Below are positions 1 through 49,140 of a stretch of 64,000 nt of DNA, one piece after another. The stretch's first letter is position 1. Each line of letters begins with the position of its first letter. A program made the translations under genes and the position numbers. Location of the stretch: NCBI GenBank assembly GCA_024975835.1, contig GCA_024975835.1_4840.1; one strand, 5' to 3'. The notes beneath the pieces were generated by a model. It did not search any database, was not told where the DNA came from, and saw nothing but the letters and a program-made list of their open reading frames with translations. This DNA comes from a phage.

Positions 1-321
1 AGATTTACCGAGTTCGGTCAGGCGATAGAACGTCACCTCAGTGTTCGGCCAGTTCACGTAAGAACCGTCATGAACCATTGAGCCAGCTGGTTCGATCAAC
101 CCCTTGGCGAGCAGGGAAGCCCCAGTGCGGGGGTTGCCTTTGACGGAGGTGAAACCACCAGCGTTCGGGCATACCTGGAACGTCCAGACGGTGTTGCCCT
201 TGTCATTGGTCCAGGATTTGGGATGAAAGTACCATTCACCATAACGGTAATGACCTTTCTCAAAGTTCAACATTCCTAAAAGGACGCAGAGTTGATGTCC
301 TGTGATGCGCGGCTTTTTCAT
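1..321 (-). CDS. hypothetical protein, partial (3' end beyond window edge)
   Basis: Minus-strand ORF with ATG at 321..319 and no stop before position 1 ([18 protein letters not shown]...); start overlaps stop of upstream gene (ATGA). Confidence 0.45.
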   Translation of the reverse strand, partial: MKKPRITGHQLCVLLGMLNFEKGHYRYGEWYFHPKSWTNDKGNTVWTFQVCPNAGGFTSVKGNPRTGASLLAKGLIEPAGSMVHDGSYVNWPNTEVTFYRLTELGKS

Positions 322-635
322 GACAATACTCCTTTCAGAGCTAAAACGGAAAGCACACCAATAATCAACCATGTCGGGATAATTGGCTTGCAGTTCATGT
401 GGGTTTCTCCACCTTCGATGTTCGGGCTTCCTTGTATAAGAACGTGTTCACAGGAAGCTCTGAACGTCATTACACAGCCCATCAACACAATTGGCCTGAT
501 ATAATAACCCGTTTTAGTTTGCTTCACGATACATGGAGAGGAGAAGCGCAGATATGGATCCCCTTTCCGGTAGCCTGTGATTGTGACCTTCTGCACTTCA
601 GAAGGCACTTTTTGGCCAGGAAAATAAATTTTCAT
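318..635 (-). CDS. hypothetical protein
   Basis: 105-aa ORF; GGGGA ribosome-binding site upstream; 4-nt overlap with neighbouring genes in an operon-like array. Confidence 0.45.
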
Positions 636-1192
636 ATTTCAATCCCCAGATTGGTGTATAACAACTCAGACAGGGTTACAGGACGCTTGAATTGTTCCCA
701 GCTGCAGTTCAGGTATTCGCGCTCTTCACGCATTTCACCGTGAAGATGGCCATGGATATTATACACCCAGCGGTCTAATTGATAAGGAACGTGAGTGGTC
801 AGCACACGACCAACCGGAGTATCACGCTCATACATCGCACCAAAGGAGCTAATCCATCCCTCTTGATACAGCTGCATCAACATCTTGAATTTGTCATGGT
901 TGCCTTGCGCCACCCTGATGATAAAGTTCGGTCGCCAGTCATCAGGGACGGGGCGGCGCTTGAACTCATCAATATTCCGCTTGGCACCCTCGCGCATCAG
1001 GCGAATGAACCCCTCAGCCCCGATGAAGCAGATGTCCCCAGCCAGTTCAAGGACGTCTCGGGACTTCAGCCCCTGAAAGATACTGTCGATAACTGCAGCA
1101 TCATGTGCCTCTTGGGTATCGAACCCACGGGGCTTGAAGATCTTCTTGTGTCCGAGGTGAGTGTCGCCCAGATACTTTACAATTCCTGCCAT
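632..1192 (-). CDS. calcineurin-like metallophosphoesterase
   Basis: Motifs GDTHLG, GNHD and HGHLHGE in the expected order; start moved to internal ATG (MAGIVKY) preceded by GAGGAG. Confidence 0.6.
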
Positions 1193-1620
1193 TATGGTCT
1201 CCTCAACCATTCTAAAATCGGTACGTTCACAAACCCTTTATGCCAGCGATGGGGTTTATGGCCTCTGTTGTGTTCGAGCAAACACGTATCCGGTGGGACA
1301 CTGAAGTGGATGCCTTCGATGTCGTAGTAATGCCCATCAATCAGAGTATACACATGACCTTCGGTCTGACTGTAATGGATCTCTGCTTGGGGATACACGT
1401 GCTTCAGAAGTAGAGCAACCTGGTAACACTTCCCGTTCTTCCCCACGTACTCGACATCCACCTGTTGTGGAAACACATCTTTGATAAGGTTTATCAATCT
1501 CGTGATGTCATTTACGACAACCGAACGTTTCATATCACCTCTCCCGAGGATTCGTTGGTGAACCAATGATACTCTATCCCGGATATAGAAAAGCCCCTCA
1601 CGGGGCTTGATCGTCTTCAT
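1192..1620 (-). CDS. hypothetical protein
   Basis: 142-aa ORF; stop overlaps start of downstream phosphoesterase (TAATG); alternative start at MKRSVVV with GGAGAGG site. Confidence 0.45.
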
Positions 1621-1900
1621 CAGGGAATATACGCCATCGACCTATTCCATACCACTCACCGATAGAGTTCCATGTCCTTTCCCCAGGCCAGCCACCGACC
1701 GAGTAGTAATGCGCCACCAGCCGCCAGTAAGGAAGAGAGGCCGTGTTCACGCCGCCGTCGGCCTTTAGGCAGGCCAAGTACCAATTCGTGAGACTGAACG
1801 CCTGAAATAACGGATGAAGGAACATGAAGTACAGGTAGCCCAATATGGCTGTGAATACCCCAGCTGTTACGATCACACCGATGACAGTGAATACAATCAT
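1598..1900 (-). CDS. small membrane protein
   Basis: 100-aa ORF with hydrophobic N-terminal segment; GGAGG upstream; ATGA overlap with upstream gene. Confidence 0.5.
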   Translation of the reverse strand: MIVFTVIGVIVTAGVFTAILGYLYFMFLHPLFQAFSLTNWYLACLKADGGVNTASLPYWRLVAHYYSVGGWPGERTWNSIGEWYGIGRWRIFPDEDDQAP

Positions 1901-2529
1901 CCCACAACCTCCAGACCCATCAGATCTTCCATGGTCTTCTGAATACGCAGCCAGTCAAGCGCAGCGTCATAACGAGGGTCATGATAGACCATACCTTCCA
2001 GTTCCCACGCCTTGATACCAGCATACCGATCCTGCTGTCCAACACCCTTCAGCCAACTCACGATGTCGAAGGTGTGGTGGTAGTCCCAAGGCTCGTTGGA
2101 GTCCTGCTTACATGTCACCTCAATGATGTGCTGAGCCTTGCGCAGATCAAACAGGTTGCGATCACACCAGTCGACCGAGCGCGGGTCTACCCCAAGACGA
2201 TGACAACCCTTGCGGATTTCATCGGCCAATTGGAAGATAGAGATGTCATCTTCCTTGGGGTACAGACTGACTGCGCGAGCCGCATCACACGGGTTACGTT
2301 TACCCGCCCCCAACCACCATTCTACCGTCCCAGCGTCCTTCACGCGACCAAGTTCGAGCTGCTCTTTGACATTCAGCTTAATGAACGTCGTGCGCTCCTC
2401 AACCAGCTGCTGAAGAGTATAACGCTTGGTCAAGTCAGCGATGGTATGTGCCCAAGACAGCATGACTGCATCATCCCAGCGCCCCAGGGTTTCGCTGTCG
2501 GCCACAGCCAAAAAATTTGATTTATACAT
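1897..2529 (-). CDS. DEDDh-type 3'-5' exonuclease (DexA/oligoribonuclease-like)
   Basis: N-terminal AVADSETLG (D-x-E exo motif I) and C-terminal YHDPRYD (H-x4-D) by eye. Confidence 0.5.
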   Translation of the reverse strand: MYKSNFLAVADSETLGRWDDAVMLSWAHTIADLTKRYTLQQLVEERTTFIKLNVKEQLELGRVKDAGTVEWWLGAGKRNPCDAARAVSLYPKEDDISIFQLADEIRKGCHRLGVDPRSVDWCDRNLFDLRKAQHIIEVTCKQDSNEPWDYHHTFDIVSWLKGVGQQDRYAGIKAWELEGMVYHDPRYDAALDWLRIQKTMEDLMGLEVVG

Positions 2530-2773
2530 GTTTATTCTCCCAACACTTTATTTTGGCTTTTACTGTATAATAATTTTCATCAATGAACTTTTTGTTGACG
2601 CGCTTAATTTCTATCTCTGGGCAAAGTAACCCTATAGTTTCCCTCAAAATCTGGCTCACCCTGGCCTGTGAAATACAATAAATTTCTGATACTTCTTTCG
2701 AACTAGTTCCAGACATGACAAGTTTTAGAATATTGACCTTTTTATAAAATTCTTGATCAAACGCACATATCAT
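2522..2773 (-). CDS. small helix-turn-helix protein
   Basis: 83-aa ORF with HTH-like segment SEIYCISQARVSQILRE; strong GAGGAGGGG site inside the end of the upstream gene; AT-rich by eye. Confidence 0.5.
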   Translation of the reverse strand: MICAFDQEFYKKVNILKLVMSGTSSKEVSEIYCISQARVSQILRETIGLLCPEIEIKRVNKKFIDENYYTVKAKIKCWENKHV

Positions 2774-2776
2774 TAT

Positions 2777-3376
2777 TCACCCCTCCTCGTCGATGATTTC
2801 TTGCTCATCTTCGACAATCATGATACCTTCTGCGTCCAGATGAGAAAGTTCCATCAGATCATTATCGAATCCGTCTCCTTCCCTGATATAGAAGACTGGG
2901 ACGACACGACGGCGGGTCTCTTCATACACGCTTTCAGAGATTCGATTGATATGGCGTACTACACTGTAGAGGTTCAGGCCACCAATACCACAGCCGATAG
3001 CAGGCAGGCCGACATAGACAGTTTCGTCTTTAGTTGCTTCCACAATTTCATGCACCTGCTCAAACAGGGTCTGAACAGAACTGATGACAGACGGCATGCG
3101 AGCGTTCGGGCCTGGATAAAACTGAGTGTAGAGGTTCGCGCCCCAAACGCCCTTGCTGTGGTCAAATGCATAGGACATACCACCCAGGCGTTGCTCTGGA
3201 CCACGAGGGTCGTTCGCATCGACTTCGCGCAGCGCTGGGAAGTTGTTGCCGATGTGCAGGGCAATACCCGCGCCCATGGTAGACCAACAGTTGGCACCGT
3301 GGGCAAAGATGTCGATCAGATTGAAGCTACAGGCGGCTTTCAGTAAATCGCCGCCATTGATTACATAGGTTGTCAT
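2777..3376 (-). CDS. macro-domain protein (ADP-ribose binding/processing)
   Basis: GGDLLKAA...IDIFAHGANCWSTMGAGIALHI and VGLPAIGCGIGG resemble macro-domain glycine-rich ADP-ribose binding loops; acidic C-terminus; start moved to ATG at 3376 (GGAGACAG site, ATGA overlap). Confidence 0.55.
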   Translation of the reverse strand: MTTYVINGGDLLKAACSFNLIDIFAHGANCWSTMGAGIALHIGNNFPALREVDANDPRGPEQRLGGMSYAFDHSKGVWGANLYTQFYPGPNARMPSVISSVQTLFEQVHEIVEATKDETVYVGLPAIGCGIGGLNLYSVVRHINRISESVYEETRRRVVPVFYIREGDGFDNDLMELSHLDAEGIMIVEDEQEIIDEEG

Positions 3377-3615
3377 GCGTACTGTCTCCATTCAATAATG
3401 CTGTTGTCAACACATGACACCTGGATGATGCCTGTGCGGTGGTGATAATCAGTCATCTGCATGATAAAGTTGTTCCCATTGCGGATAATGGTGTTGACAA
3501 CGATACCCTTGGCAGCAAGGCGTATTACAATGGCAGTGCAAAGACGGTCCATGTAACCGGACACAGAACCTGGTTCGAAGCATCGCTCGAACAGGTTTTC
3601 AAATTCTGGGCTCAT
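3373..3615 (-). CDS. hypothetical protein
   Basis: 80-aa ORF whose stop overlaps the macro-domain gene start. Confidence 0.4.
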   Translation of the reverse strand: MSPEFENLFERCFEPGSVSGYMDRLCTAIVIRLAAKGIVVNTIIRNGNNFIMQMTDYHHRTGIIQVSCVDNSIIEWRQYA

Positions 3616-3665
3616 TTGATGTTACCAAACAAGAGGTCGAGGCGGTAATAATACCGCCTTTTTCT

Positions 3666-4076
3666 TCAATAGAGGTCTTCGGAAAAGAGTTCGCGGAAAG
3701 GGGTTGTCTTCAGGCGCACCTGATTGATCTGTCCAGCTTCACGGGCTACGATGCACGCCTCTTCACGAGTGAGGAAGTTGCCCTGGTTGTCGATGAATCC
3801 CTGTTCGCGGGTATGGGTGGATTTAATGACGCCTGCTTCTTTCAGGATCTTGAGCTGGCTGTTCATGAATCGGCTGTGGTGACGGTCGGCAACGACGATC
3901 ACGTCACCATATTTGTTGGCGGCAGCGACCACACGGCGCTCCCAGGCACCTTCGGCAGGAAGTTCACGAGTGTACAATGGAATCATCGTATCGCCGATGT
4001 CATCCCCTTTCACCTGTGAGAACAACTTGCCTTCAGTGCCCGTTGGGAGTTCACGAAAATATCCCAGTAATTTCAT
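3666..4076 (-). CDS. hypothetical protein
   Basis: 136-aa ORF with protein-like composition. Confidence 0.45.
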   Translation of the reverse strand: MKLLGYFRELPTGTEGKLFSQVKGDDIGDTMIPLYTRELPAEGAWERRVVAAANKYGDVIVVADRHHSRFMNSQLKILKEAGVIKSTHTREQGFIDNQGNFLTREEACIVAREAGQINQVRLKTTPFRELFSEDLY

Positions 4077-4135
4077 AATCTATTCAATCCAAATTTCAGG
4101 TTCATGGATGTCGACCATACCCACTGTCTGGTTCT

Positions 4136-4357
4136 TCAGATCGTGGAAACAGTCGCCGAGGAATTGTATTTGCCGTCGGTCAGGAACAGATGGCAACGTG
4201 ATGCTGGATCAGATGCATTCACCAGCAGGCTCGGTGTGAACGTAGGCTCAATAACATTGTTGTTCCACGACCACATCGGACCTTGGGTTTCGCCCTTAAT
4301 GTGATATAGATGAAGCATATCACACCTAGGACAATGAAAATACAAGGAATCATCCAT
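4136..4357 (-). CDS. hypothetical small Cys-containing protein
   Basis: 73-aa ORF with CPRC motif; weak support. Confidence 0.3.
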   Translation of the reverse strand: MDDSLYFHCPRCDMLHLYHIKGETQGPMWSWNNNVIEPTFTPSLLVNASDPASRCHLFLTDGKYNSSATVSTI

Positions 4358-4392
4358 AGACAGAAGTTTAGGGCTCAGAAGCTATGTTATGA

Positions 4393-4680
4393 TCAACCAT
4401 CTACAGTGGCTTCAGGATCGTAGGGGCGCAGTTCACCAACCAGTTTCGGAAAGAGTGCAAGCCCGAACAGGTTGAAAGAACGCATAGTGCCGACCATTGC
4501 AACATCTTCCCCTTCCTCGATATCTTTCATGGCGCACATTGGGTAATATTCATCGACCTCTGGGTCTTCCGTCTCACCATAGAGACCAAACGCTACCTCT
4601 TCTTTGATAAAGCGAGGAACCAAGAAATCAAATAGGATAATGATGAATACCACAGGTGCTGCAGAACGGAGATAGAACAT
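4393..4680 (-). CDS. small membrane protein
   Basis: 95-aa ORF with hydrophobic N-terminal segment. Confidence 0.4.
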   Translation of the reverse strand: MFYLRSAAPVVFIIILFDFLVPRFIKEEVAFGLYGETEDPEVDEYYPMCAMKDIEEGEDVAMVGTMRSFNLFGLALFPKLVGELRPYDPEATVDG

Positions 4681-4721
4681 AGCACAACCCTCCAGGTGAG
4701 GAGGGGCGAACCCCTCCGATG

Positions 4722-6062
4722 TTATAGGCCAAGAGCCTTTTCAAGGTCATCAAGGTCTTCAGTGTAAAGATCGATGTCCTCTTTCTTACTTAATTCCTTG
4801 TGCTGTGCTTCAAGGTTCTCAATCTGCTTGAGTAGGCGCTCACGGGCATCCAGAGTAATAGACGACAGAGGCATCTTGAACAACTCGTCAAGATCACCAC
4901 CAAAGTCCGGGTAGTCCTGCATGAACAGAGACTTCAGCACGTCAATCTTTTGGCGGAGATCAACACGCGTCGCCCATTCAATGAACACCGCCCGGTCACC
5001 CAGCTTGCGGATCCTGTCTGCCATGTCCTTCAACAGATACTGGCGACGGTCTTCATACCGTGACAGGCGATAATTGAAGAACGGCAGCAGCATATCCCGC
5101 CAACCAGAATAACGATGAATGACACCGTCTTCATCCCATGCCGTCCAAACAGGCTTGTTGGCTGAATACAACTTGAACATCTGCTCAACCTGCTCGTCAC
5201 TTAGCTTAGAGAGTTCGCCGCGCTTAAACACAACCGTGATATCCCAGCCGTCTTCGGTCGTGTCGTTGGCGTACTCGGTGAGGATACCAGCCTTGTACAG
5301 AGGCAGCAACACCTTGGTCTCATAGGTTTTGGCAAACCAACCCACTGGGACTTCGGTGATATGCAGGGTGGTGGCATTGACGCGACGGAAGATACCGCGA
5401 CTGTATGCTCTTCCTTCCTCAGTATAGCCTGTCTCTCCTTTGAAGCCGTTCCAGTACGGTTTTAAGTCTTTCGGGTCTTCGCCACGGAGAAGCGCTCTCA
5501 GGGCATTCAGCACGGACTTAACGCAATGACACGGGGTGTCGGTGGAATATCCGGTGCCGATACCATTGATCCCATTCACCAGGAACATGGGCAGGATGGG
5601 CAGAAAGAACTTCGGCTCTAGCCTTTCTTCACCAAGGTAGTTGTATTCCAAGATACCCTCATCCTCCTTGCGGAAGATCTTGCGGATAACATCAGACACA
5701 GCCACCGAAATGTAACGTGCTGACGACGCGTCGCGCCCCATGATAGAACCAAACTGGCCATCGCGGTCAAAGTACGGGATGTTGTTCGTGCCTGGGAACC
5801 CCTGAGCCATGTTCACGATAGTGCCGCTCATGTTCTCACCACCAGACTTGTAGTTGGTGCGAGCGGCGGCGAACATACCAAGGCGGTCAACAATCTCCTC
5901 CTTGTTGTACTCAAGAGCAGCGAAAAGGATCTTGCGCTGGCTTGGCTTGAGGCTGTCAATCAGCTGAGGGATTTGACGGATGCTGTTGACCACAGAAAAC
6001 TGCTTATGGTCAGTGTTGACAAAGTCCGTTACAGTAATGCTCTTAGCAACCATCTTATTCAT
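4722..6062 (-). CDS. 52: DNA topoisomerase II medium subunit (T4 gp52-like)
   Basis: Type II topoisomerase A-subunit-like sequence directly downstream of the ATPase subunit; start moved to internal ATG near the upstream stop. Confidence 0.8.
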   Translation of the reverse strand: MNKMVAKSITVTDFVNTDHKQFSVVNSIRQIPQLIDSLKPSQRKILFAALEYNKEEIVDRLGMFAAARTNYKSGGENMSGTIVNMAQGFPGTNNIPYFDRDGQFGSIMGRDASSARYISVAVSDVIRKIFRKEDEGILEYNYLGEERLEPKFFLPILPMFLVNGINGIGTGYSTDTPCHCVKSVLNALRALLRGEDPKDLKPYWNGFKGETGYTEEGRAYSRGIFRRVNATTLHITEVPVGWFAKTYETKVLLPLYKAGILTEYANDTTEDGWDITVVFKRGELSKLSDEQVEQMFKLYSANKPVWTAWDEDGVIHRYSGWRDMLLPFFNYRLSRYEDRRQYLLKDMADRIRKLGDRAVFIEWATRVDLRQKIDVLKSLFMQDYPDFGGDLDELFKMPLSSITLDARERLLKQIENLEAQHKELSKKEDIDLYTEDLDDLEKALGL

Positions 6063-7965
6063 CCTCAGTTTCAAACAGGCAAACATCGCTAAACCAGGTT
6101 TTACGGTAATCGGCAGCCTCATCACCGAAGCCATTCTTCAGTGACTGTTGGTAGCCATCGTCCAGCGTGACCGTCGTAGTATACGCATCTAGGTTGTTTA
6201 GAATACGTTTGAAGTCTTCAGTGCTGTTACCACCAAGACCTTTCAGATATTTCTTCTTCGTGATCTTCTTGGCATCAGGCGTCTTCAGGAACTCCTCATA
6301 CTCGGCGTTGTTCATGAACTCATGCATCACCTTACCACACCACACACGCATGTAAGGGGTGCGCAGGAGCTTCAGCCTGCCCTGACGGACATACTCCGGC
6401 CAGTAGGTGCAATACAGGGTGATCAACAACCCACGGATGTGGATGCCGTCATCGTCCGCATCGGTAGCCACAACAGTCTGTGGGTAACGGGTGATATCAA
6501 GGGGCTGGCCTGGCACTGCGCCGCCATGGATCGTACACAGGTTCTTGAACTCTTCATTGTTCATCACCTTTGAGCGCGGGGCGTTCAGGCAGTTGATGAA
6601 CTTACCACGAAGCGGGAACAACCCGATCTTCTTGGTGTCGCGGGCGTTCAGGATAGGATTGGAGGCACTATCACCCTCTGTCAGCAACAGGGAGCATCCG
6701 CTGCGGTCACCACGGGCGGTCGCCGGGTAATACTTCTCAATCTCACGATAATCCCGCTTGCTGATGTCCTTCTTGGCCTTTTCAAACTCAGCATCATCCT
6801 GCTCATTGCGCAGGGAAGCCAGTTCTTTGCTCAGACCAGCCGTAACGAACTCAAGCGCCTTGCGGATCAGTTTATCACTGGGCTTGTACGACGTACCGAA
6901 CTGGCTGACAGGAGTGGTCATGCGCTCCTTGGTCTGGCTGTCAAAGCGCGGGTTGTTGATGTCGGCAGCGATGAACAAGGACATGTGGTTCTTGATCATT
7001 GCTGGCTTCAGTTCGGTCTTGAACTTCTTCACCAGCTGGGGACGAATCGCTGCCACGATCTGGTCAGCAACATAATCAACGTGAGGACCACCGATGTGGG
7101 TGGCAATAGAGTTCACGTATGATGCGTGCATGAACGTACCGGATGAAGGGGCTACAGCAACAGACCAATCCCCGGTTTCGTCAACAGCCGAACCAGCATG
7201 GAAGTAATCAACGAAGTGGCCAAAGCGGTCAATCCGGATTTGCTTCCCGTTGAGAACAATCTTCAGGCGCGGGTTACACGCAGCCACTTCAAACGCGCGG
7301 CGATAGATCATCAGCAGGTTGTTCTGGTCAAGTCCTTTGACGCCCAGACGAGCATAGTCAGGGATCCAGGCGATGGATGTGCCAGGACTGTTCACGTTGC
7401 TGATGACTGGGTTAGATTTCTTGCTCATGTTGTCTTCAAACGTCTGAGTATAAGACTTCTTGCCGTCATTAGTCGTGACGCGGAACCATTTGGAGAACAC
7501 GTTGACGAGGGACGCCCCTTCGCCATTCTGACCACCGGACTTCTGGTTGTTGTACTCTTCGTCTTCGTCGTTGAAGTTCGATCCCGCATATAGAGAGCCG
7601 AACAACATTTCAGGAAGCCACTCGTTGGTGACGCCATGCTTGACCACAGGGATACCCCCGTTGTCAGCAACGATGATTTGACCGTTCATCGGGGAAACTG
7701 TGACGGTGATTTCCGTCAGGGATTTGCCCTCAGGGGTCTTGCTGTGGTCAACACAGTTGGTGATGATTTCATCAAACTGTTTGATCAGTGCGGGGGAGTA
7801 CTCAAAGTTGTCACGGAAGATGACTTTATCCTTAGTTGGGTCATACACCCACACCGTCCCCACAGACGAACGAATACTACCCAGATGACGCTCTGGGCGG
7901 AGTAGGATATGCTCAACGTGAGTGAGCTTCTTGTACTTGCGTTCAATATCAATTTTGTTGGACAT
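6055..7965 (-). CDS. 39: DNA topoisomerase II large subunit (ATPase; T4 gp39 and gp60 equivalents fused)
   Basis: 636-aa GyrB/ParE-like ORF with GHKL ATPase and TOPRIM-like regions; single ORF about the combined length of T4 gp39 plus gp60. Confidence 0.85.
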   Translation of the reverse strand: MSNKIDIERKYKKLTHVEHILLRPERHLGSIRSSVGTVWVYDPTKDKVIFRDNFEYSPALIKQFDEIITNCVDHSKTPEGKSLTEITVTVSPMNGQIIVADNGGIPVVKHGVTNEWLPEMLFGSLYAGSNFNDEDEEYNNQKSGGQNGEGASLVNVFSKWFRVTTNDGKKSYTQTFEDNMSKKSNPVISNVNSPGTSIAWIPDYARLGVKGLDQNNLLMIYRRAFEVAACNPRLKIVLNGKQIRIDRFGHFVDYFHAGSAVDETGDWSVAVAPSSGTFMHASYVNSIATHIGGPHVDYVADQIVAAIRPQLVKKFKTELKPAMIKNHMSLFIAADINNPRFDSQTKERMTTPVSQFGTSYKPSDKLIRKALEFVTAGLSKELASLRNEQDDAEFEKAKKDISKRDYREIEKYYPATARGDRSGCSLLLTEGDSASNPILNARDTKKIGLFPLRGKFINCLNAPRSKVMNNEEFKNLCTIHGGAVPGQPLDITRYPQTVVATDADDDGIHIRGLLITLYCTYWPEYVRQGRLKLLRTPYMRVWCGKVMHEFMNNAEYEEFLKTPDAKKITKKKYLKGLGGNSTEDFKRILNNLDAYTTTVTLDDGYQQSLKNGFGDEAADYRKTWFSDVCLFETEDE

Positions 7966-32653: not shown

Positions 32654-32742
32654 TGGCGGAAGGTGAAGGATTCGAACCTTCGGGGGCTAAAAGCCCCACT
32701 CGATTAGCAATCGAGTCCCTTAAACCTCTCGGGCAACCTTCC
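32654..32742 (-). tRNA. tRNA-Ser (anticodon GCT)
   Basis: Hand-folded: acceptor GGAAGGT/ACCTTCC, anticodon arm CTCGA-TTGCTAA-TCGAG, long variable arm GGGGC/GCCCC, T-arm GAAGG-TTCGAAT-CCTTC, encoded CCA; 89 nt. Confidence 0.85.
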
Positions 32743-32962
32743 AATTTGGACGGGCTTCGCACCCGATTGAGCATTTGATCTACCGTAGCCCAACTCCCCG
32801 CGCTTCTCAGCGCCGATTGGTTAACTGGCGACCAGTGCCTTCTGGTTCGATCTCCTGGAACTTTACAGGCTTTGCGCCAGACCATTTCTGGAAGTTGGGG
32901 CATCGTTTCCGATGTGGAGTCACCCCATTTTATACACAGCTGGCTGCAACGCTTACTGTGTT

Positions 32963-33046
32963 TGGTGTGAGTGGATGGATTCGAACCACCGCGCTGTTAC
33001 GGGGAGATTTACAGTCTCCTGCATTCGACCGCTCTGCCACACTCAC
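32963..33046 (-). tRNA. tRNA-Tyr (anticodon GTA)
   Basis: Hand-folded: acceptor GTGAGTG/CACTCAC, anticodon arm GGAGA-CTGTAAA-TCTCC, extended variable region, T-loop TTCGAAT, encoded CCA; 84 nt. Confidence 0.75.
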
Positions 33047-33303
33047 ATTTGGTCTGCCGCTGCGTGCTGGGCCACGCTCGAGGACATCGGCCATCCTTCC
33101 TCAGCTAATCCACGCAGCGGTAGATTTGTATCAGAGTGTCCGGTGTAGCAACCCGTGAGGTGCGCACTACTGTAGCCTCTACACTCTGAATTTGGTGGGT
33201 GTTACTATCGTCGTCTTCGGATTCCGTTCGGCTATTGGACAGAGGCTTGGAGCTTGTCGGTCGCGTACTTTATGCCTATTCACTTTCGTTCACACCCATT
33301 GTC

Positions 33304-33379
33304 TGGCGACGATGGCAGGACTTGAACCTGCGACATATGGATTAACAGTCCACCGTTCTACCGACTGAACTACATCGTC
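33304..33379 (-). tRNA. tRNA-Asn (anticodon GTT)
   Basis: Hand-folded canonical cloverleaf: acceptor GACGATG/CATCGTC, D-arm GTTC-AGTCGGTA-GAAC, anticodon loop CTGTTAA, T-arm GCAGG-TTCAAGT-CCTGC, CCA; 76 nt. Confidence 0.85.
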
Positions 33380-33388
33380 TTGCAAATC

Positions 33389-33416
33389 ACTATACCATAT
33401 AAAGTTTATTGAACAA
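33389..33416 (-). promoter_or_regulatory. sigma70-like promoter (TTGTTC-N16-TATAGT, TG-extended) upstream of tRNA-Asn
   Basis: Minus-strand -35 TTGTTC (33416..33411) and TGgTATAGT -10 (33394..33389); predicted start falls within a few nt of the tRNA-Asn 5' end. Confidence 0.45.
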
Positions 33417-33550
33417 ACATTTATTTTACAACAAACTGTATTGGCGGGGTCTGAGGCTTTTCACCTCACCTGCTGGGTTTGGCCGCCCAGCCGTTCTCTA
33501 TGAGGATTCACTGTCCGGACAGCTATCCATTAAACTATCGCCCCTCAATA

Positions 33551-33627
33551 TGGTGATCCTGATTGGGTTTGAACCAATGACCAATGAATTATGAGTTCAC
33601 TGCTCTAACCGACTGAGCTACAGGACC
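33551..33627 (-). tRNA. tRNA-Met or tRNA-Ile2 (anticodon CAT)
   Basis: Hand-folded: acceptor GGTCCTG/CAGGATC, D-arm GCTC-AGTCGGTTA-GAGC, anticodon loop CTCATAA, T-arm ATTGG-TTCAAAC-CCAAT, CCA; Met versus lysidine-Ile not resolvable by eye. Confidence 0.8.
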
Positions 33628-40740: not shown

Positions 40741-40773
40741 TAGATGAAACGAACACATTTAGGGGTATTTGAA

Positions 40774-43700
40774 ATGGCTAATAAACCAACACAGCCTGTT
40801 TTCCCTCTCGGTCTGGTGGCTGAAGAGCAGTCTACTTTGGCTGGTGTCGTCAACACGGGTACGATTGAGCATGGACCAGATGCTGTCCTGACTTTACCCG
40901 AGGGTAATGCCAGCGCAGGACTCCCGTCTTCCGTTCGCTACAATGCCGACTCCGACGAATTTGAGGGCTTCTATGAAAATGGTGGATGGTTGCCGCTGGG
41001 TGGCGGTGGTATCCGCTGGGAAGTCCTTCCGCATGCCTCTACGGCAACGCTCACTGAAGGGCGAGGCTATCTCATTAATAATACCACAGGGGCATCTACA
41101 GTGGTTCTCCCTTCCCCTACGCGTGTTGGGGATTCTGTTACTATTTGCGACGCTTATGGGAAATTTGCCACTTACCCATTGACTGTGTCTCCTTCTGGAA
41201 ATAATTTGTATGGCTCCACTGAAGACATGGCTATAACAACTGATAACGTATCAGCAACGTTCACTTGGTCTGGACCTGAACAAGGTTGGATTATTACATC
41301 CGGCGTCGGTCTTGGCCAAGGTCGTGTCTACAGTCGTGAAATCTTTACAAAAATTTTGGCGTCTGAGACAAGTTCTGTCACTCTCAATACTCCACCAACA
41401 ATCGTGGACGTGTATGCTGATGGAAAACGTCTTGCGGAATCCAAATATTCACTAGATGGGAATGTAATCACTTTCAGTCCTTCTTTGCCAGCCAGCACAG
41501 AACTTCAGGTGATTGAATATACTCCTATTCAATTGGGTATTGGGGATGGTTCTGGCTCTTCCACGATTACCTGGGTCTATAATGGGGGTTCAGCGATTGG
41601 TGGTGAAACCGAAATCACGTTGGACGTCGTTGTTGATGATGTTCCGGCCATTGATATAAACGGAAGTCGCCAGTATAAAAATCTGGGGTTCACATTCGAT
41701 CCATTAACCAGTAAAATCACTCTTGCGCAAGAACTGGAACCAGAGGATGAAGTTGTTGTAATTATCAATGGAACACCAAACATCTATAATCAAATTGATC
41801 ATACTTTGCGGGAAGTTGCTCGCGCAACCAATGTTAAAGATACAGAGGTCGTTTATTTTAGTGTTGGTGCTGCGTTAAGTGGGTATAAAGTTATTTATGA
41901 CAAGGAGACGCAAAGGGCTTATCCCTTGCCTGCTGATATTGCCCCTGGTACTACTGCTGTCAGTCTTAGTTCTTCCGCTGTACTTGTGCATTCAGCGGGT
42001 TCTGTAGACCTCGGGGAATTGGCTGTTACTCGTGAAGAGTACGTCACATTGTCCGGAACATTTGATACTGGTGTAACAGTTAATACCAAGAATGAACTGG
42101 TTGTTTTTACTGATGGTAAGTACCGTTGGGATGGGGTGTTGCCTAAAGAAGTTTCTGCTGGCTCAACTCCAGAGACTGCTGGTGGTGTAGGTGCGGGAAA
42201 ATGGTTGAGTGTTGGTGATGTATCATTGAGAGCCGACTTACTGTCAGGTGGCATGACTGATTTAATTGGATTTCCTGGGTACAACAATCTTACAGCATTC
42301 TTGCATACCACTGTTCGTACAGTAGAAGAGTTCAGAAGTGACGGACTAACTGACGCACAGGTATTCCAAGCGGCAATCAATGCAGGTAACGTGCGTGTGC
42401 CAGCAGGTAGCGTTATTAACATCACAGGGAATATTGATATCACTATCCCAGCCAATCGTTTAATTGTTGTAGATGACGGAGGTATATTACGCTCTAACGG
42501 TCGTTTTACAGCTTACGGCGTAAACGATGTTCATTGGGTAATTAACGGACTAGTTGAAAGCACTGGCATGGTTGCGGCCCCGGCAAAATCTGGATGGCCC
42601 AATACAGCAGAAGGCACTCAAGCGGGAGATGAGCGTGGGTTTATTGAGTTTGGTGGTGTTGTATTCGCCGGTAACGATGGGAAGAATTATTCTGTAACTG
42701 GTTCAGGGCACATTCAGGGTCCATGGTCTGGAACTCCTAACGTTTCAGATTTAGCCAATCAGTTAAATAAAAAGGGTATTGCTGCGTGGAACTGCTCAGG
42801 ATTCACTGTTGAAGGCGTTAGTATCGACGGCTTTGAAGGTGAGCAAGTGTATTGGTTTGCTCGCAACGCAGACAACAGAGACGCAATTTTCAATAGAGTA
42901 AAAAGTACCAATGCACGTTTTAACGCCCTGAACATGAACGTGTACAGCGCAACAAAAAATATTCGTGTGATCGATTGTTACACCAATAATTCGTACAACG
43001 GAATTGAATCATCTGCTGGTGATATCATTAACACAATCCATGACAATCCGGTTAACACAGGTATTCTGTTTGGTTCAGGTACTGGTGGTGGCAACCGATT
43101 AATTGAAGGCAATCAGGTGAACGAATGCCTCGGAACACCTTATTCACTACTTTATAATAAGGACTATGAAAGTCGTGGGTATGTACCTAACGTTACAGTG
43201 GTAAACAACACCGCAACAAACCCCGGCGTTCACTTCATCGCCATCTCAGGCATCACTGGATTCAAAGTCGCCAACAATACATGTTACGGGCTTAAAACAG
43301 GTAGATTTATTCAGGCCACCGTTTTACAAGGCGGTATTATAGAAAATAATACTAACTACAAACCATCACCAGGGACAGAGCACGTCTATCGTGGCGAATG
43401 TTATAGCGTAGAAGAGCATAATAACGCGCGTGTACTTTTAGGCGGTTCGTATGTTACTGCCGCCGCGTCAGACCACGCCATAACCGGGGGGAATTCAAGC
43501 GCTATAACGACATTCGGCAATCGTGAAAACTTCAAGGATTTACGTGCTGACAGTCCAGCAATCGGAACTGGCGCAGAACTTAGATACTCTGTTGATATAG
43601 GCGCCGCATTTACTCCTGTATCGTTAAGTATGCAACTGACCACATATGGGGGTTCAGGCGCTCAAGCTGACTGGTCTATCAATAACCTAAAGATAAATCC

Positions 43701-44253
43701 TAATGATGTACTTGGGCAGTCATGGGTGTCTCGACATACAGGACATTGGGAACCTGGGACTGATGGTATACAAAATTTCGGGTCACCAACGCGCCGTGTT
43801 AACAACAGCTATTTCACGGTAGCGCCTACTGTAACGTCTAATGAAATGGCTAAAACTGCGCTGTTAGATCTATCTGAAGCAGAACGTAACGCGGCATTAG
43901 AAATTAAAGATAACATTCGCAAGTATAAGCTATTAGATGCTATCGCTATTAAAGGGGAGGATGGTGCCCGTTGGCACTTCGGTGTGGGTGCACAAACGGT
44001 AGGCGATATAATGAGAAAACATGGACTTAATCCTGCTGACTATGGGTTTTGGTGTCACGATACATGGGAAGACCAATACACGGATGTAATGAAAAAAATT
44101 TATACCGGAAATACCGTTGTAAATGAGGAAGGACTTTCAGTTCCTGAATACACATTAGAACCAACAGGTGAAAGGATGCTTGTTAGGACCGCCGGAGAAA
44201 ACTACGGCATTCGTTATGATGAATTGTCTATGTTTATATTAAGTGCAATATAA
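40774..44253 (+). CDS. tailspike protein with N-terminal anchor region, beta-helix and C-terminal chaperone-like domain
   Basis: 1159 aa; conserved about 130-aa module (VKDTEVVYFSVGA...KYRWDG) shared with the next tailspikes; Gly/Asn/Thr-rich beta-helix composition; start at 40774 because the promoter motif precludes the 40744 ATG. Confidence 0.7.
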   Translation: MANKPTQPVFPLGLVAEEQSTLAGVVNTGTIEHGPDAVLTLPEGNASAGLPSSVRYNADSDEFEGFYENGGWLPLGGGGIRWEVLPHASTATLTEGRGYLINNTTGASTVVLPSPTRVGDSVTICDAYGKFATYPLTVSPSGNNLYGSTEDMAITTDNVSATFTWSGPEQGWIITSGVGLGQGRVYSREIFTKILASETSSVTLNTPPTIVDVYADGKRLAESKYSLDGNVITFSPSLPASTELQVIEYTPIQLGIGDGSGSSTITWVYNGGSAIGGETEITLDVVVDDVPAIDINGSRQYKNLGFTFDPLTSKITLAQELEPEDEVVVIINGTPNIYNQIDHTLREVARATNVKDTEVVYFSVGAALSGYKVIYDKETQRAYPLPADIAPGTTAVSLSSSAVLVHSAGSVDLGELAVTREEYVTLSGTFDTGVTVNTKNELVVFTDGKYRWDGVLPKEVSAGSTPETAGGVGAGKWLSVGDVSLRADLLSGGMTDLIGFPGYNNLTAFLHTTVRTVEEFRSDGLTDAQVFQAAINAGNVRVPAGSVINITGNIDITIPANRLIVVDDGGILRSNGRFTAYGVNDVHWVINGLVESTGMVAAPAKSGWPNTAEGTQAGDERGFIEFGGVVFAGNDGKNYSVTGSGHIQGPWSGTPNVSDLANQLNKKGIAAWNCSGFTVEGVSIDGFEGEQVYWFARNADNRDAIFNRVKSTNARFNALNMNVYSATKNIRVIDCYTNNSYNGIESSAGDIINTIHDNPVNTGILFGSGTGGGNRLIEGNQVNECLGTPYSLLYNKDYESRGYVPNVTVVNNTATNPGVHFIAISGITGFKVANNTCYGLKTGRFIQATVLQGGIIENNTNYKPSPGTEHVYRGECYSVEEHNNARVLLGGSYVTAAASDHAITGGNSSAITTFGNRENFKDLRADSPAIGTGAELRYSVDIGAAFTPVSLSMQLTTYGGSGAQADWSINNLKINPNDVLGQSWVSRHTGHWEPGTDGIQNFGSPTRRVNNSYFTVAPTVTSNEMAKTALLDLSEAERNAALEIKDNIRKYKLLDAIAIKGEDGARWHFGVGAQTVGDIMRKHGLNPADYGFWCHDTWEDQYTDVMKKIYTGNTVVNEEGLSVPEYTLEPTGERMLVRTAGENYGIRYDELSMFILSAI

Positions 44254-44257
44254 CAAA

Positions 44258-44277
44258 AACCCCGCTTTGGCGGGGTT
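44258..44277 (+). terminator. rho-independent terminator
   Basis: AACCCCGCTTTGGCGGGGTT hairpin then CTTATTATAC. Confidence 0.5.
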
Positions 44278-44288
44278 CTTATTATACC

Positions 44289-44352
44289 TTTGTTCATAAA
44301 TTTATTAGTTCAGACTAAATACCCTATATTGGCAAATCCTTTATGGGGTATT
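44289..44352 (+). repeat. direct repeat copy 1 (intergenic promoter/leader cassette)
   Basis: About 64 nt nearly identical to 46949..47012 (one mismatch by eye), containing TTGTTCATAAATTTATTAG and CTAAATACCC. Confidence 0.6.
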
Positions 44353-44355
44353 ATC

Positions 44356-46674
44356 ATGATTTCTCAATTCAATCAACCACGCGGCTCCGCTTCCATAGAA
44401 GTTAACAAACAATCTATCGCTCGAAATTTCGGTGTCAAAGAAGACGAAGTCGTTTATTTCACTGCTGGTATTGATCTCAGTGGATTTAAAGTAATTTATG
44501 ATGAGACCACCCAACGGGCTTATTCTCTCCCTTCCGGTATTGTTTCAGGGACAACTGCAATTAGTCTGGACGAACGAGCTATCCTCACTCATTCCGCTGG
44601 TTCTGTTGATCTAGGGGAACTTGCCGTAGCCAGAGAAGAATATGTAACCTTACCTGGTTCATTTGATACCGGTGTAACCGTCAATGCTAAGAATGAATTG
44701 GTTGTCTTTACCGACGGCAAGTACCGTTGGGATGGGGAGATTCCCAAAATAGTACCTGTCAACACAACCCCTAAAGATACTGGGGGTGTTGGTCTAGGGG
44801 CATGGTTAAGAGTCGGCGATGCATCTTTGCGTTCTGAAGTTTACTCAAATATGGCTTGGGTTTCTCCTGAAATGTACGGTGCACTTGAAACGGAATCTGA
44901 TGCGGATACTCAAGCTGTTATAGATGCGTTTATTACCGCGAAGACAATGGGGCTGGCTGTGAAGCTGTCCAGAATATATAAGTGTGATCAAAACATATCA
45001 GTAGCTAATTTTTACGGAGATATTTTTGGCGTAAGTATGGCCACATGCGGAATAAAATTTGCTGCTGGATATGGTCTTATCATTGATAACTCTGGGACCA
45101 CAGTAGTACGCAAACCTGTAGGTCTTTGTAATTTCACCATTAAAGCCACTGGTAAACGACAAGGCACTGCTCTAGAGTTTCTAGGTACTGGTGGAATAGC
45201 TTATGCACGACAACTTATTGTAAGAGATTTAGATGTATCAAATGATGCTGGAACCCCTACCTCTTTTGATGTAGTATTCAAGTTAAACCGTGCAGGTCAA
45301 TGTGTATTTGATGGGGTGAATGTCGCTGGCGGTGGCACAAGCGACCCCAACGCTCGCATGGGCAAAATATTCGACCTGTACTCAACAAAGAATATCAATG
45401 TTGTCAACGGTTCTTATCAGAACTTCGACACCTTCATGTACGCGCATGACGATACCGAAGGTGTTGTGGTTTTCGGTAACCACATCATCGCAGGTCGTCG
45501 TGGTGTTGTCTCAGAAAACAATGTTGGCAACTTGTTCCAGGTAACGAACAACCACTTCAACACATCGTTGAGTGCTGTAGAGTTGGGCGATCTGTCTAAC
45601 AACGGTGGGAACCATAGCATAATCACCGACAACTTCTGTATGGTATGGAATGGGATTCCTGAAGATGATACTACGCCATATATCGGGTTCAAGTCCTGTG
45701 CCATGTACGGAACCTATAGTGATAATGAGGTGCTTCTGTCTGGTTTCACTAAAGACGTTACTCACACCTTGTTTACTTCTAATGCCACAGGGACCAGAAC
45801 GGCACAATACAATATAGTAAGCAACCCAAGAGTTAATAATTGTACCAGAGGCATTCATATGCTGGCTGGCACCCAATCGAACCATGTGAGCAACGTCCAG
45901 CGCGTAGGCGTAACACTGGCAAATGCCATCATAGATGAAGGGGCAAACAACAGGTCATGGATGTTTGATGTAGATAATAATGCATTTATGACCAGAAACA
46001 TAAAATTGTGCACTCCAGGTTCAGCCGTTGCGCAGCAAATTCGTTTTTACTCCGCTACTGATGCAAATACACCAAGCGCCATTCTCCGAGTATCTGGAGG
46101 CGTTGCCGGTGTTGGCGGGGATGGGACGGCAGAGCTTACTGCTGGTACTACCGTCTTTAAAAACATTAGACCGTCAGCTGCAAACACTTATAGCTGCGGA
46201 TCTAGCGGTGCACCGTGGTCTGGCGGGTTCACACAAACTGCATTCACCGTGACATCTGATGCTGATTACAAATCAGATCCACTGCTGATGACTGATGATA
46301 TTCTTGATGCAGCAGAAGAGGTACAACTTGTCCAGTATCAATATCTCGACAGGATTGAAGAAAAAGGAGCTGACGGTGCCCGCTGGCACTTCGGAGCCAT
46401 TGCACAACGGTATGTAGAGGCATTTGAAAGACACGGGCTTGATGCTCATCGCTTTGGGTTCATCTGTTATGATGAATGGGGTGATGCTCCTGCTGTCATA
46501 GATGAAGATACTGGCGAAGTGATCACGCCAGCTATTGAGGCAGGATCAAGATACGGCATTCGTTATGAAGAAATGCTGGTAATGGAAGCAGCGCTGCAAC
46601 GCAGAAACTATGCGCGGCTACTTGATAAATACGAAACACTTGAGGCTCGTATTAGCTCATTAGAGAATAAATAA
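44356..46674 (+). CDS. tailspike protein with C-terminal chaperone-like domain
   Basis: 772 aa from ATG 44356 (GGGG site); N-terminal module shared with the other tailspikes; C-terminal GARWHFG...YGIRYEE region shared with the first tailspike. Confidence 0.7.
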   Translation: MISQFNQPRGSASIEVNKQSIARNFGVKEDEVVYFTAGIDLSGFKVIYDETTQRAYSLPSGIVSGTTAISLDERAILTHSAGSVDLGELAVAREEYVTLPGSFDTGVTVNAKNELVVFTDGKYRWDGEIPKIVPVNTTPKDTGGVGLGAWLRVGDASLRSEVYSNMAWVSPEMYGALETESDADTQAVIDAFITAKTMGLAVKLSRIYKCDQNISVANFYGDIFGVSMATCGIKFAAGYGLIIDNSGTTVVRKPVGLCNFTIKATGKRQGTALEFLGTGGIAYARQLIVRDLDVSNDAGTPTSFDVVFKLNRAGQCVFDGVNVAGGGTSDPNARMGKIFDLYSTKNINVVNGSYQNFDTFMYAHDDTEGVVVFGNHIIAGRRGVVSENNVGNLFQVTNNHFNTSLSAVELGDLSNNGGNHSIITDNFCMVWNGIPEDDTTPYIGFKSCAMYGTYSDNEVLLSGFTKDVTHTLFTSNATGTRTAQYNIVSNPRVNNCTRGIHMLAGTQSNHVSNVQRVGVTLANAIIDEGANNRSWMFDVDNNAFMTRNIKLCTPGSAVAQQIRFYSATDANTPSAILRVSGGVAGVGGDGTAELTAGTTVFKNIRPSAANTYSCGSSGAPWSGGFTQTAFTVTSDADYKSDPLLMTDDILDAAEEVQLVQYQYLDRIEEKGADGARWHFGAIAQRYVEAFERHGLDAHRFGFICYDEWGDAPAVIDEDTGEVITPAIEAGSRYGIRYEEMLVMEAALQRRNYARLLDKYETLEARISSLENK

Positions 46675-46762
46675 AAATCCTACTCTCCTGAGAGTACTAT
46701 GTATATGCATTCGTTATTTACGGTTGTAAACTATAGTAATTACATTAACAATCCAATAGGTA

Positions 46763-46780
46763 AGCCCCAGCATATGGGCT
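46763..46780 (+). terminator. rho-independent terminator
   Basis: AGCCCCAGCATATGGGCT hairpin followed by TTTTTGTTG. Confidence 0.5.
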
Positions 46781-46914
46781 TTTTGTTGTACCCCAAACAA
46801 TCCTTTATGTAGACTGTTTTAGTCAATTACGACTTAACTAACCTGAGAAAGTCCCTATGGGAAATGAACCAGATAACGTAACTCTAGCGAGAGACTGAGA
46901 AACATTTCGAAAAC

Positions 46915-46937
46915 CAAAACCCCGCTTCGGTGGGGTT
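46915..46937 (+). terminator. rho-independent terminator (second, tandem)
   Basis: AACCCCGCTTCGGTGGGGTT hairpin then TCTCTTATAC; homologous to the 44258 terminator. Confidence 0.45.
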
Positions 46938-46948
46938 TCTCTTATACA

Positions 46949-47012
46949 TTTGTTCATAAATTTATTAGTTCAGACTAAATACCCCATATTGGCAAATCCT
47001 TTATGGGGTATT
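46949..47012 (+). repeat. direct repeat copy 2 (intergenic promoter/leader cassette)
   Basis: Near-identical to 44289..44352; includes the late-promoter-like CTAAATACCCC and GGGGTATTT leader. Confidence 0.6.
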
Positions 47013-47017
47013 TTCAA

Positions 47018-49081: not shown

Positions 49082-49085
49082 TAAC

Positions 49086-49112
49086 TGCCCCCCCCTTCTC
49101 TCCTGGGAGGGG
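49086..49112 (+). terminator. stem-loop (weak terminator) between tailspike genes
   Basis: CCCCCCT...AGGGGGG hairpin followed by TTTCC. Confidence 0.35.
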
Positions 49113-49140
49113 GGTTTCCTAGAAAAACAAAGAGGTTTAT

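Follow-up and report, generated by a model that had tools for sequence, protein, structure and literature searches.

We found that a string of small minus-strand genes at positions 318-3615 of a phage contig (NCBI GenBank assembly GCA_024975835.1, contig GCA_024975835.1_4840.1; the whole stretch of 64,000 nt analysed is called the window below) encodes a macrodomain protein that, judged by its homology to T4 Tk.4/AdfM, is a probable anti-DarT2 factor. DNA matches to positions 1-6200 occur in 267 phage records, the best being those of the Agtrevirus-like Ackermannviridae fGh-Ecl02, YX22, AV101 and Ag3 (~96% identity), and by this similarity we assign the window to an Agtrevirus-like Ackermannviridae phage. 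A sequence-only reading of the same DNA had seen here an undescribed anti-defence locus, in which the macrodomain protein, a DEDDh exonuclease and a calcineurin-like phosphoesterase would erase immune signals or reverse ADP-ribosylation. The three enzyme folds were borne out. As for the function, we consider it likely that the string contains one probable Tk.4/AdfM counter-defence gene among ordinary DNA-metabolism and accessory genes, and that it does not form an operon dedicated to the erasure of immune signals. Reversal of DNA ADP-ribosylation is the best-supported role for the macrodomain protein, by analogy with its relatives, and is now a described counter-defence. We found nothing pointing to the degradation of Thoeris, CBASS or Pycsar signals. 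The locus is also less novel than had been supposed: this kind of macrodomain protein has been described as AdfM. The three genes are linked only within the Ackermannviridae. What is new is one more member, at family level, of the Tk.4/AdfM group.

The AlphaFold2 model of the macrodomain protein, made from an alignment with 55 homologues, has a predicted local distance difference test (pLDDT) score of 96.5. Its top Foldseek matches in the Protein Data Bank (PDB) are TARG1, Poa1p and the DarG proteins of M. tuberculosis and T. aquaticus (Taq), with E values of 2e-9 to 3e-8 (TARG1 2.3e-9, DarG 1.2e-8) and target-normalised template-modelling (TM) scores of 0.77-0.81; a viral Foldseek match is tk.4 of Acinetobacter phage 133. 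The family profile matches DarG (5M3I) with an E value of 4.1e-17 and TARG1 with 2.5e-14. Pfam alone is marginal (Macro, E 9e-3), and the sole NCBIfam match is antitoxin_DarG (2.4e-8; 33.7 bits against a cutoff of 250, over model positions 6-135 of 338). From these models and profiles we are confident that the open reading frame (ORF) encodes a true macrodomain of the TARG1/DarG clade and does not belong to an unrelated fold. In BLASTP it is 33% identical to T4 Tk.4 over 115 aa (E 1e-15), and tblastn finds relatives in more than 2600 phage records, many of them annotated as tk.4 (in T4-like phages) or macro domain and others as 'phosphatase' or 'O-acetyl-ADP-ribose deacetylase'. The residues H26, G27, N29, C30, N81, T84, Q85, G89 and P125 are invariant in 56/56 family members and the same in T4 Tk.4. 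The loop IGCGIGG is likewise invariant, the GxGxGG diphosphate-binding loop being kept, and N29 aligns with N22 of Taq DarG.

In a screen of a T4 transposon library against DarTG2, tk.4 was the single significant hit, and a clean tk.4 knockout was DarTG2-sensitive; the gene was renamed adfM (bioRxiv 10.1101/2025.11.20.689424). PhiKZ gp104, also named AdfM, removes thymidine-linked ADP-ribose and protects against DarTG2 (Cell Rep 2026, PMC13309987). A role in reversing DNA ADP-ribosylation is favoured because T4 Tk.4/AdfM, the relative closest to the window protein among those characterised, acts against DarTG2 on genetic evidence. In the mechanism we propose, the macrodomain protein most likely shields replicating phage DNA from DarT2, the DarTG2 toxin that ADP-ribosylates thymidine in single-stranded DNA, and would, by homology, do so by removing or otherwise neutralising this modification. 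The window protein shares with T4 Tk.4 the motifs HG(A/C)NC, NLYTQ, PGPN and IG(C/A)GIG, a Gln at the position of the DarG Lys, and a free-standing state with no DarT partner. The two differ in phage family (Straboviridae versus Ackermannviridae) and in gene context: the T4 gene adjoins tk and vs, whereas the window gene adjoins dexA, the gene of the exonuclease. The DarG2 macrodomain (PDB 5M31, 5M3E, 5M3I) and human TARG1 (4J5R) are the best structural and profile matches and share the Asn and the GxGxGG loop; unlike DarG, however, the window protein has no catalytic Lys, no C-terminal DarT-binding domain and no neighbouring darT. PhiKZ gp104 is a phage orphan macrodomain as well (hhalign probability 97.9%, E 3.7e-13; 21-27% identity), but it keeps the DarG active site as N23/K78 (FPTKDNW), corresponding to N22 and K80 in Taq DarG (PMC13309987), whereas the window protein reads LYTQFYPGPN. 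ICP1 AdfB was considered as a further relative and set aside: it is a DarT-binding antitoxin mimic and not a relevant macrodomain homologue.

Should the macrodomain protein act as T4 AdfM does, a counter to DarTG2 would be built into essentially all Ackermannviridae. The family consists of broad-host-range phages, which infect Salmonella, E. coli, Klebsiella and Dickeya and find use in biocontrol, and such a counter, if true, would help to explain and predict their host range. The genes of the string are the following.

3373-3615, minus strand: DUF7234 protein of 80 aa (phrog_5593; Pfam PF23881, 7.7e-41), fast evolving, with 53-72% amino-acid identity to relatives.
2777-3376, minus strand: macrodomain protein of 199 aa, T4 Tk.4/AdfM family (BLASTP, AlphaFold2, Foldseek, profiles).
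2522-2773, minus strand: weak helix-turn-helix (HTH) protein of 83 aa, AT-rich gene, with weak matches to sigma-70 region 4 and HTH models.
1897-2529, minus strand: DexA, a DEDDh 3'-5' DNA exonuclease of 210 aa (alignment to PDB 8KEL; phrog_255).
1598-1900, minus strand: TM100, a 100-aa protein with one predicted N-terminal transmembrane helix (hydrophobic residues 1-28; phrog_2531, 9.5e-25).
1192-1533, minus strand: phage YunG-like protein of 113 aa (Pfam PF24591, 4.5e-43; phrog_4814), with 93-97% conservation.
632-1192, minus strand: calcineurin-like metallophosphoesterase of 186 aa, aq_1665-like subfamily (motifs; phrog_547, 3e-44; Foldseek match 1XM7).
318-635, minus strand: DUF7618 protein of 105 aa (phrog_6872; Pfam PF24594, 1.3e-49), joined to the phosphoesterase gene by an ATGA junction.
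1-273, minus strand: further ORF of at least 91 codons, open from an ATG at 273 and cut by the window edge.

Several points weigh against the anti-DarT2 assignment and the overall picture built on it. In the alignment with DarG and TARG1, Gln85 (56/56 members and T4 Tk.4) stands at the catalytic Lys, K80 of DarG and K84 of TARG1. The identity to T4 Tk.4 is low, and the Ackermannviridae proteins have about 45 extra C-terminal residues, with an acidic tail at the end, that T4 Tk.4 is missing. The T4 work is a preprint with purely genetic evidence, whose authors put forward the stripping of ADP-ribose from DNA by AdfM as a proposal (10.1101/2025.11.20.689424). The literature yielded no link between DarTG and Ackermannviridae and no experiments on Ackermannviridae macrodomain genes. 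As for the neighbours, the association of the macrodomain gene with dexA in 21/21 Ackermannviridae loci could reflect function and not only inheritance, and the relatives of the phosphoesterase, Aquifex aq_1665 and its T5-type counterparts, include no characterised member. The Tk.4 family as a whole is, in the alignment, devoid of the canonical catalytic lysine, which is a useful observation. With Gln85 in place of the DarG Lys, simple DarG-like hydrolysis cannot be assumed, and the protein is therefore filed as a member of the Tk.4 family and not as a DarG-type enzyme. The family-wide change from Lys to Gln poses a concrete biochemical question, namely hydrolysis by a different mechanism or binding only.

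The same residues bear on an alternative, in which the protein acts on targets other than DarT2-modified DNA: ADP-ribosylated RNA or protein (CmdTAC-type mRNA modification, host ADP-ribosyltransferases), ADP-ribose-1''-phosphate or O-acetyl-ADP-ribose. The missing DarG/TARG1 Lys is compatible with such a target, as are the presence of Poa1p, an ADP-ribose-1''-phosphate phosphatase, among the top structural matches, the annotation of relatives as phosphatase or deacetylase, and His26, which is invariant in the Tk.4 family and common to TARG1 but absent from DarG. However, the same Gln and His are found in T4 Tk.4, which was the only significant hit of the DarTG2 screen, and the best sequence-profile and NCBIfam matches are to DarG. 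In tblastn, T4 ModA matches only T4-like phages and no ModA-type phage ADP-ribosyltransferase is seen in the Ackermannviridae (Alt-type enzymes were not searched), so that ModA-type regulation is unlikely; regulation of phage ModA/ModB-type ADP-ribosyltransferases by the macrodomain protein was tried as a candidate and rejected. We regard a different target as unlikely and keep the anti-DarT2 role as the favoured one.

We investigated the linkage of the three enzymes in 79 viral loci with a macrodomain relative (10-kb flanks), together with the Ag3 and AV101 regions, using tblastn and profile hidden Markov models. The operon proposed by the sequence-only reading would have the three enzymes jointly destroy gcADPR/His-ADPR (Thoeris) and the cyclic oligonucleotides of CBASS, Pycsar and type III CRISPR. 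Each of the three has substrates derived from nucleotides and seems competent for catalysis, and their genes are tightly packed on one strand. Among the 21 Ackermannviridae loci, dexA lies beside the macrodomain gene, adjacent or with one small gene between, in 21/21, and the phosphoesterase gene is present in 19/21; the fetched flanks of L019 (Serratia/Klebsiella-type) and L022 (Erwinia Bue1-like) are without it, which argues against a joint function of the trio. In the 60 other phage macrodomain loci, a DexA relative within 10 kb occurs once (1/60, 5 kb away) and a phosphoesterase relative once (1/60, 9.7 kb away and on the opposite strand). The T4 genes tk.4 (at 60.9 kb) and dexA (at 8.2 kb) are 52 kb apart. 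Outside the Ackermannviridae, and in T4, the trio is thus not found together. The distances between the genes vary through insertions of HNH endonucleases, a QueC-like gene and small ORFs. On gene order, we take the cluster to be inherited synteny within one phage family. The immediate neighbours of the macrodomain gene are DUF7234 on one side and the HTH gene or dexA on the other; no darT is adjacent.

The exonuclease is, by sequence, the orthologue of T4 exonuclease A, a housekeeping DNA-scavenging enzyme. It aligns over its full length with T4 DexA (PDB 8KEL; phmmer E 2.7e-4, residues 9-207 against 5-210) and matches phrog_255 'exonuclease' at 7e-53; the DEDDh residues D11, E13, D128, H183 and D188 are present and aligned with those of the T4 enzyme (NAR 2025, PMC12153337). 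In T4 as in the window phage, the topoisomerase II and rII genes are found a few kb away from dexA. The sequence identity is nevertheless low, and the T4 protein has 227 aa versus 210 aa here. The DNA substrates differ as well, thymidine being hypermodified in Ackermannviridae DNA whereas T4 DNA carries 5hmC; the discrimination of modified DNA by T4 DexA may therefore not carry over to the window enzyme. Across Ackermannviridae genera, dexA is 92-97% identical with a dN/dS (ratio of nonsynonymous to synonymous divergence) of 0.035-0.05, like topoisomerase II. DexA would degrade DNA in the 3'-5' direction to mononucleotides and serve host-DNA scavenging, recombination or homing, as in T4. Housekeeping homologues, which the sequence-only reading had weighed as the contrary outcome, were thus found in part, that is, for the exonuclease.

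The constant neighbourhood of the macrodomain gene and dexA invites a further explanation, in which the two proteins, possibly with the phosphoesterase, cooperate: the macrodomain without Lys recognises the ADP-ribosylated-DNA lesion, which is cut out or trimmed by the nuclease or phosphodiesterase encoded nearby. Besides the 21/21 loci and the absence of the canonical Lys, the position of both genes inside one hairpin-bounded unit (described below) is in keeping with this. Against it, the T4 genes are 52 kb apart and tk.4 was, on its own, the single significant hit of the DarTG2 screen; no DexA is nearby in 59/60 of the other phage macrodomain loci; the slot between the macrodomain gene and dexA accepts unrelated insertions; and the literature search gave no biochemical precedent. 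We consider such cooperation very unlikely. The same low standing applies to its more specific form, a multi-enzyme repair in which the macrodomain protein, because of the Gln, may be no simple eraser: it might be a reader or binder of ADP-ribosylated thymidine, or have a catalytic mechanism of a new kind, and hand the lesion to DexA and perhaps to the YunG-like protein and the phosphoesterase.

The phosphoesterase has the five metallophosphoesterase motifs (GDxH, GD, GNHD, H and HxHxH) in invariant form, and D10, H12, D53, N98, H99, H134, H147, H149 and H151 are invariant in 13 homologues. Its model (pLDDT 87) has the metallophosphoesterase fold, and we conclude from motifs and model that it is probably an active phosphodiesterase or phosphatase. 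The only strong Foldseek match is 1XM7 (Aquifex aq_1665, an uncharacterised protein; E 9.6e-6, TM 0.61), followed by weaker matches to LpxH, MJ0936, Mre11, GpdQ and Rv0805. The window protein has no Pfam match, and distant relatives match PF00149; the family comprises 2142 representatives. It shares its motifs and a length of ~190 aa with aq_1665 and the 'Ser/Thr phosphatases' of T5-type phages (26-30% identity to the T5-like homologues) and differs from most relatives by an insertion of ~35 residues (roughly 58-92). Cyclic-nucleotide phosphodiesterases, Rv0805 among them, belong to the metallophosphoesterase superfamily, and the near relatives are without a known substrate, both of which leave room for the signal-destroying operon. 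The match to Rv0805 is weak, however (E 1.2e-2, TM 0.34), and a cyclic-nucleotide substrate is suggested by superfamily membership only. The phage enzymes Acb1 and Apyc1, which degrade such signals, have other folds, namely 2H and metallo-beta-lactamase.

Two candidate relatives of the phosphoesterase were rejected. Mycobacteriophage gp48, a phosphoesterase, subverts host defence by damaging host DNA (PMC12287305). A profile comparison of the window phosphoesterase with gp47, the Bxb1 homologue of gp48, gave only a motif-level match with a probability of 5%, and gp48 belongs to a different subfamily. The NCBIfam match to PdeM (E 1.2e-3, 18 bits against a cutoff of 150) is too weak. The phosphoesterase and YunG-like genes are joined by TAATG and both are 92-97% conserved across genera, the level of core replication genes, which suggests a functional pair. 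The pairing does not extend to T5-like phages, in which no YunG-like gene adjoins that of the T5-type phosphoesterase. The small phosphoesterase, conserved and here partnered by the YunG-like protein, is an uncharacterised enzyme that is shared with T5-like phages.

Seven or eight minus-strand genes had been read as overlapping by 1-8 nt and expressed as one translationally coupled unit. The ORFs are indeed eight on the minus strand, and five of the seven junctions are such overlaps, of the types ATGA, ATGTATAA and TAATG: 4-nt ATGA overlaps at 3373/3376 (DUF7234 and macrodomain genes), 1897/1900 (dexA and TM100) and 632/635 (phosphoesterase and DUF7618), an 8-nt overlap at 2522/2529 (HTH gene and dexA) and the 1-nt TAATG overlap at 1192 (YunG-like and phosphoesterase genes). 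The remaining two are a 3-nt spacer between the macrodomain and HTH genes and a 64-nt gap from TM100 to the YunG-like gene, these two genes being uncoupled; the gap contains a GC-rich hairpin and a U-run. This internal gap with its terminator-like hairpin speaks against expression as a single coupled unit. Two hairpins were found in and around the string.

1591-1608, minus strand: terminator-like hairpin AAGCCCC-GUGA-GGGGCUU followed by UUCUAUAU, from a terminator scan; it spans the TM100 stop codon.
3639-3660, minus strand: stable hairpin with an 8-bp GC-rich stem, between the Arn.3-like gene and DUF7234; the scan also lists it as terminator-like on the plus strand.

The predicted RNA fold of the region at 1591-1608 has an energy of -21.5 kcal/mol (z = -2.74 against shuffled sequences). 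That of 3610-3668 has -19.7 kcal/mol with z = -4.57 and is the stronger of the two. The hairpin at 3639-3660 is a possible terminator, attenuator or RNA-stability element. Both structures are predicted, and they may end transcription or stabilise mRNA. Together they flank five genes, DUF7234 through TM100. A sigma-70 promoter scan gave 8 sites versus 9.7 expected from shuffled sequence, and we claim no promoter; the literature on Ackermannviridae transcriptomics or promoters offered nothing useful.

Overlapping junctions are not special to the string. In the 9.2 kb of AV101 homologous to this region, overlaps of 1-8 nt occur at 9/17 same-strand junctions, the topoisomerase and dCMP deaminase genes being among those joined in this way. 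Since overlaps are the default of the genome, tight packing says little on shared function. The region would be part of an early DNA-metabolism and accessory block between topoisomerase II and dCMP deaminase, whose genes are packed with overlaps as is usual for the genome and would have separate purposes. With regard to the operon for destroying immune signals, the terminator-like hairpin parts the macrodomain gene and dexA from the phosphoesterase gene, the closest relatives with a known role suggest other functions (defence against DarTG2 for Tk.4/AdfM, DNA scavenging and homing for DexA), and the slow evolution of DexA and the phosphoesterase matches that of topoisomerase II. We find that reading unsupported because the linkage of the trio is confined to the Ackermannviridae, the T4 genes are distant, a hairpin interrupts the string, the HTH gene is sporadic and DexA is a housekeeping enzyme, and we hold it to be highly improbable. 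The reading of one Tk.4/AdfM counter-defence gene in a mixed block stands as the likely one.

The HTH gene had been counted as a member of the operon. The gene is present, but its similarity to helix-turn-helix proteins is weak (sigma-70 region 4 and HTH_23/28, E ~5e-3) and it behaves as a sporadic insertion. Its GC content is 32.5% versus ~52% in the flanks, and it occurs in only 4 other phage records, being absent from Ag3 and Kuttervirus. From its composition and distribution, we take it to be a recently acquired AT-rich passenger and not the regulator of the block. The slot that it occupies between the macrodomain gene and dexA is empty in Ag3 and holds an unrelated 114-aa ORF in Kuttervirus EP75, and looks like an insertion hot spot. 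The only distant match of the HTH gene, in Streptomyces phages, is under a LAGLIDADG endonuclease annotation; the gene could be what remains of a mobile element, namely its DNA-binding domain. Kuttervirus phages (EP75, L084, 4199-5157) also have two genes between dexA and the YunG-like gene that are absent here (1533-1598), an extra small ORF and one for a QueC-like PP-loop ATPase.

The eight ORFs were delimited from the ORF list, homologue lengths and the annotations of Ag3, AV101 and EP75. The starts of three long ORFs at 3391, 1620 and 1210 were rejected and replaced by 3376, 1533 and 1192, according to homologue lengths, Shine-Dalgarno sequences and published annotations. For the YunG-like gene, the ATG at 1533 lies behind a strong Shine-Dalgarno sequence (GGAGAGGTGAT), Ag3 and AV101 are annotated from the same start, and within the long ORF the PF24591 alignment begins at residue 42 and that of phrog_4814 at residue 30. 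The dN/dS against relatives is 0.03-0.45 for every string gene that could be tested, and these genes are therefore considered real and under purifying selection. The macrodomain, DUF7234, TM100 and DUF7618 proteins evolve several-fold faster than DexA, the YunG-like protein and the phosphoesterase; for the macrodomain protein, the nonsynonymous divergence is 2-5 times that of the latter three, which resemble topoisomerase II. The two rates fit a mix of host-interaction genes and housekeeping genes. TM100 is only 39% identical to its Ag3 and P46FS4-like counterparts (dN/dS 0.45), whose flanking genes are 95-98% identical, while the identity to other relatives (L005, AV101) is 91-98%, which suggests allelic replacement or very fast evolution.

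The string is a run of small genes on the minus strand, situated downstream of the gene for the medium subunit of topoisomerase II. It does not stop at 318 but is cut by the window edge. In relatives, the same run reaches the dCMP deaminase gene (annotations of Ag3, AV101 and EP75), and in AV101 two more small genes and dCMP deaminase lie downstream of the stretch homologous to the string; in this phage, that end falls outside the window. Just upstream of the string are a homologue of T4 Arn.3 (3666-4076; phrog_839) and a DUF6527 zinc-ribbon-like protein of 73 aa (4136-4357), both evolving moderately fast.

Elsewhere, the window holds rIIA, topoisomerase II, DNA polymerase, a baseplate wedge gene and four tail-spike genes, which are typical of the family. 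A very large ORF of 1639 aa at 51242-56161 matches only phrog_358 and phrog_877, phage families without an assigned function. The four tail-spike genes lie in a row at 40744-51219 (1169, 794, 692 and 692 aa) with a GC content of 0.43-0.45 versus ~0.50; this low-GC block fits the horizontal exchange of receptor-binding modules that has been described for AV101-type phages. Four clustered tRNA genes (Ser-GCT, Tyr-GTA, Asn-GTT and Met-CAT) are found at 32654-33627 on the minus strand.

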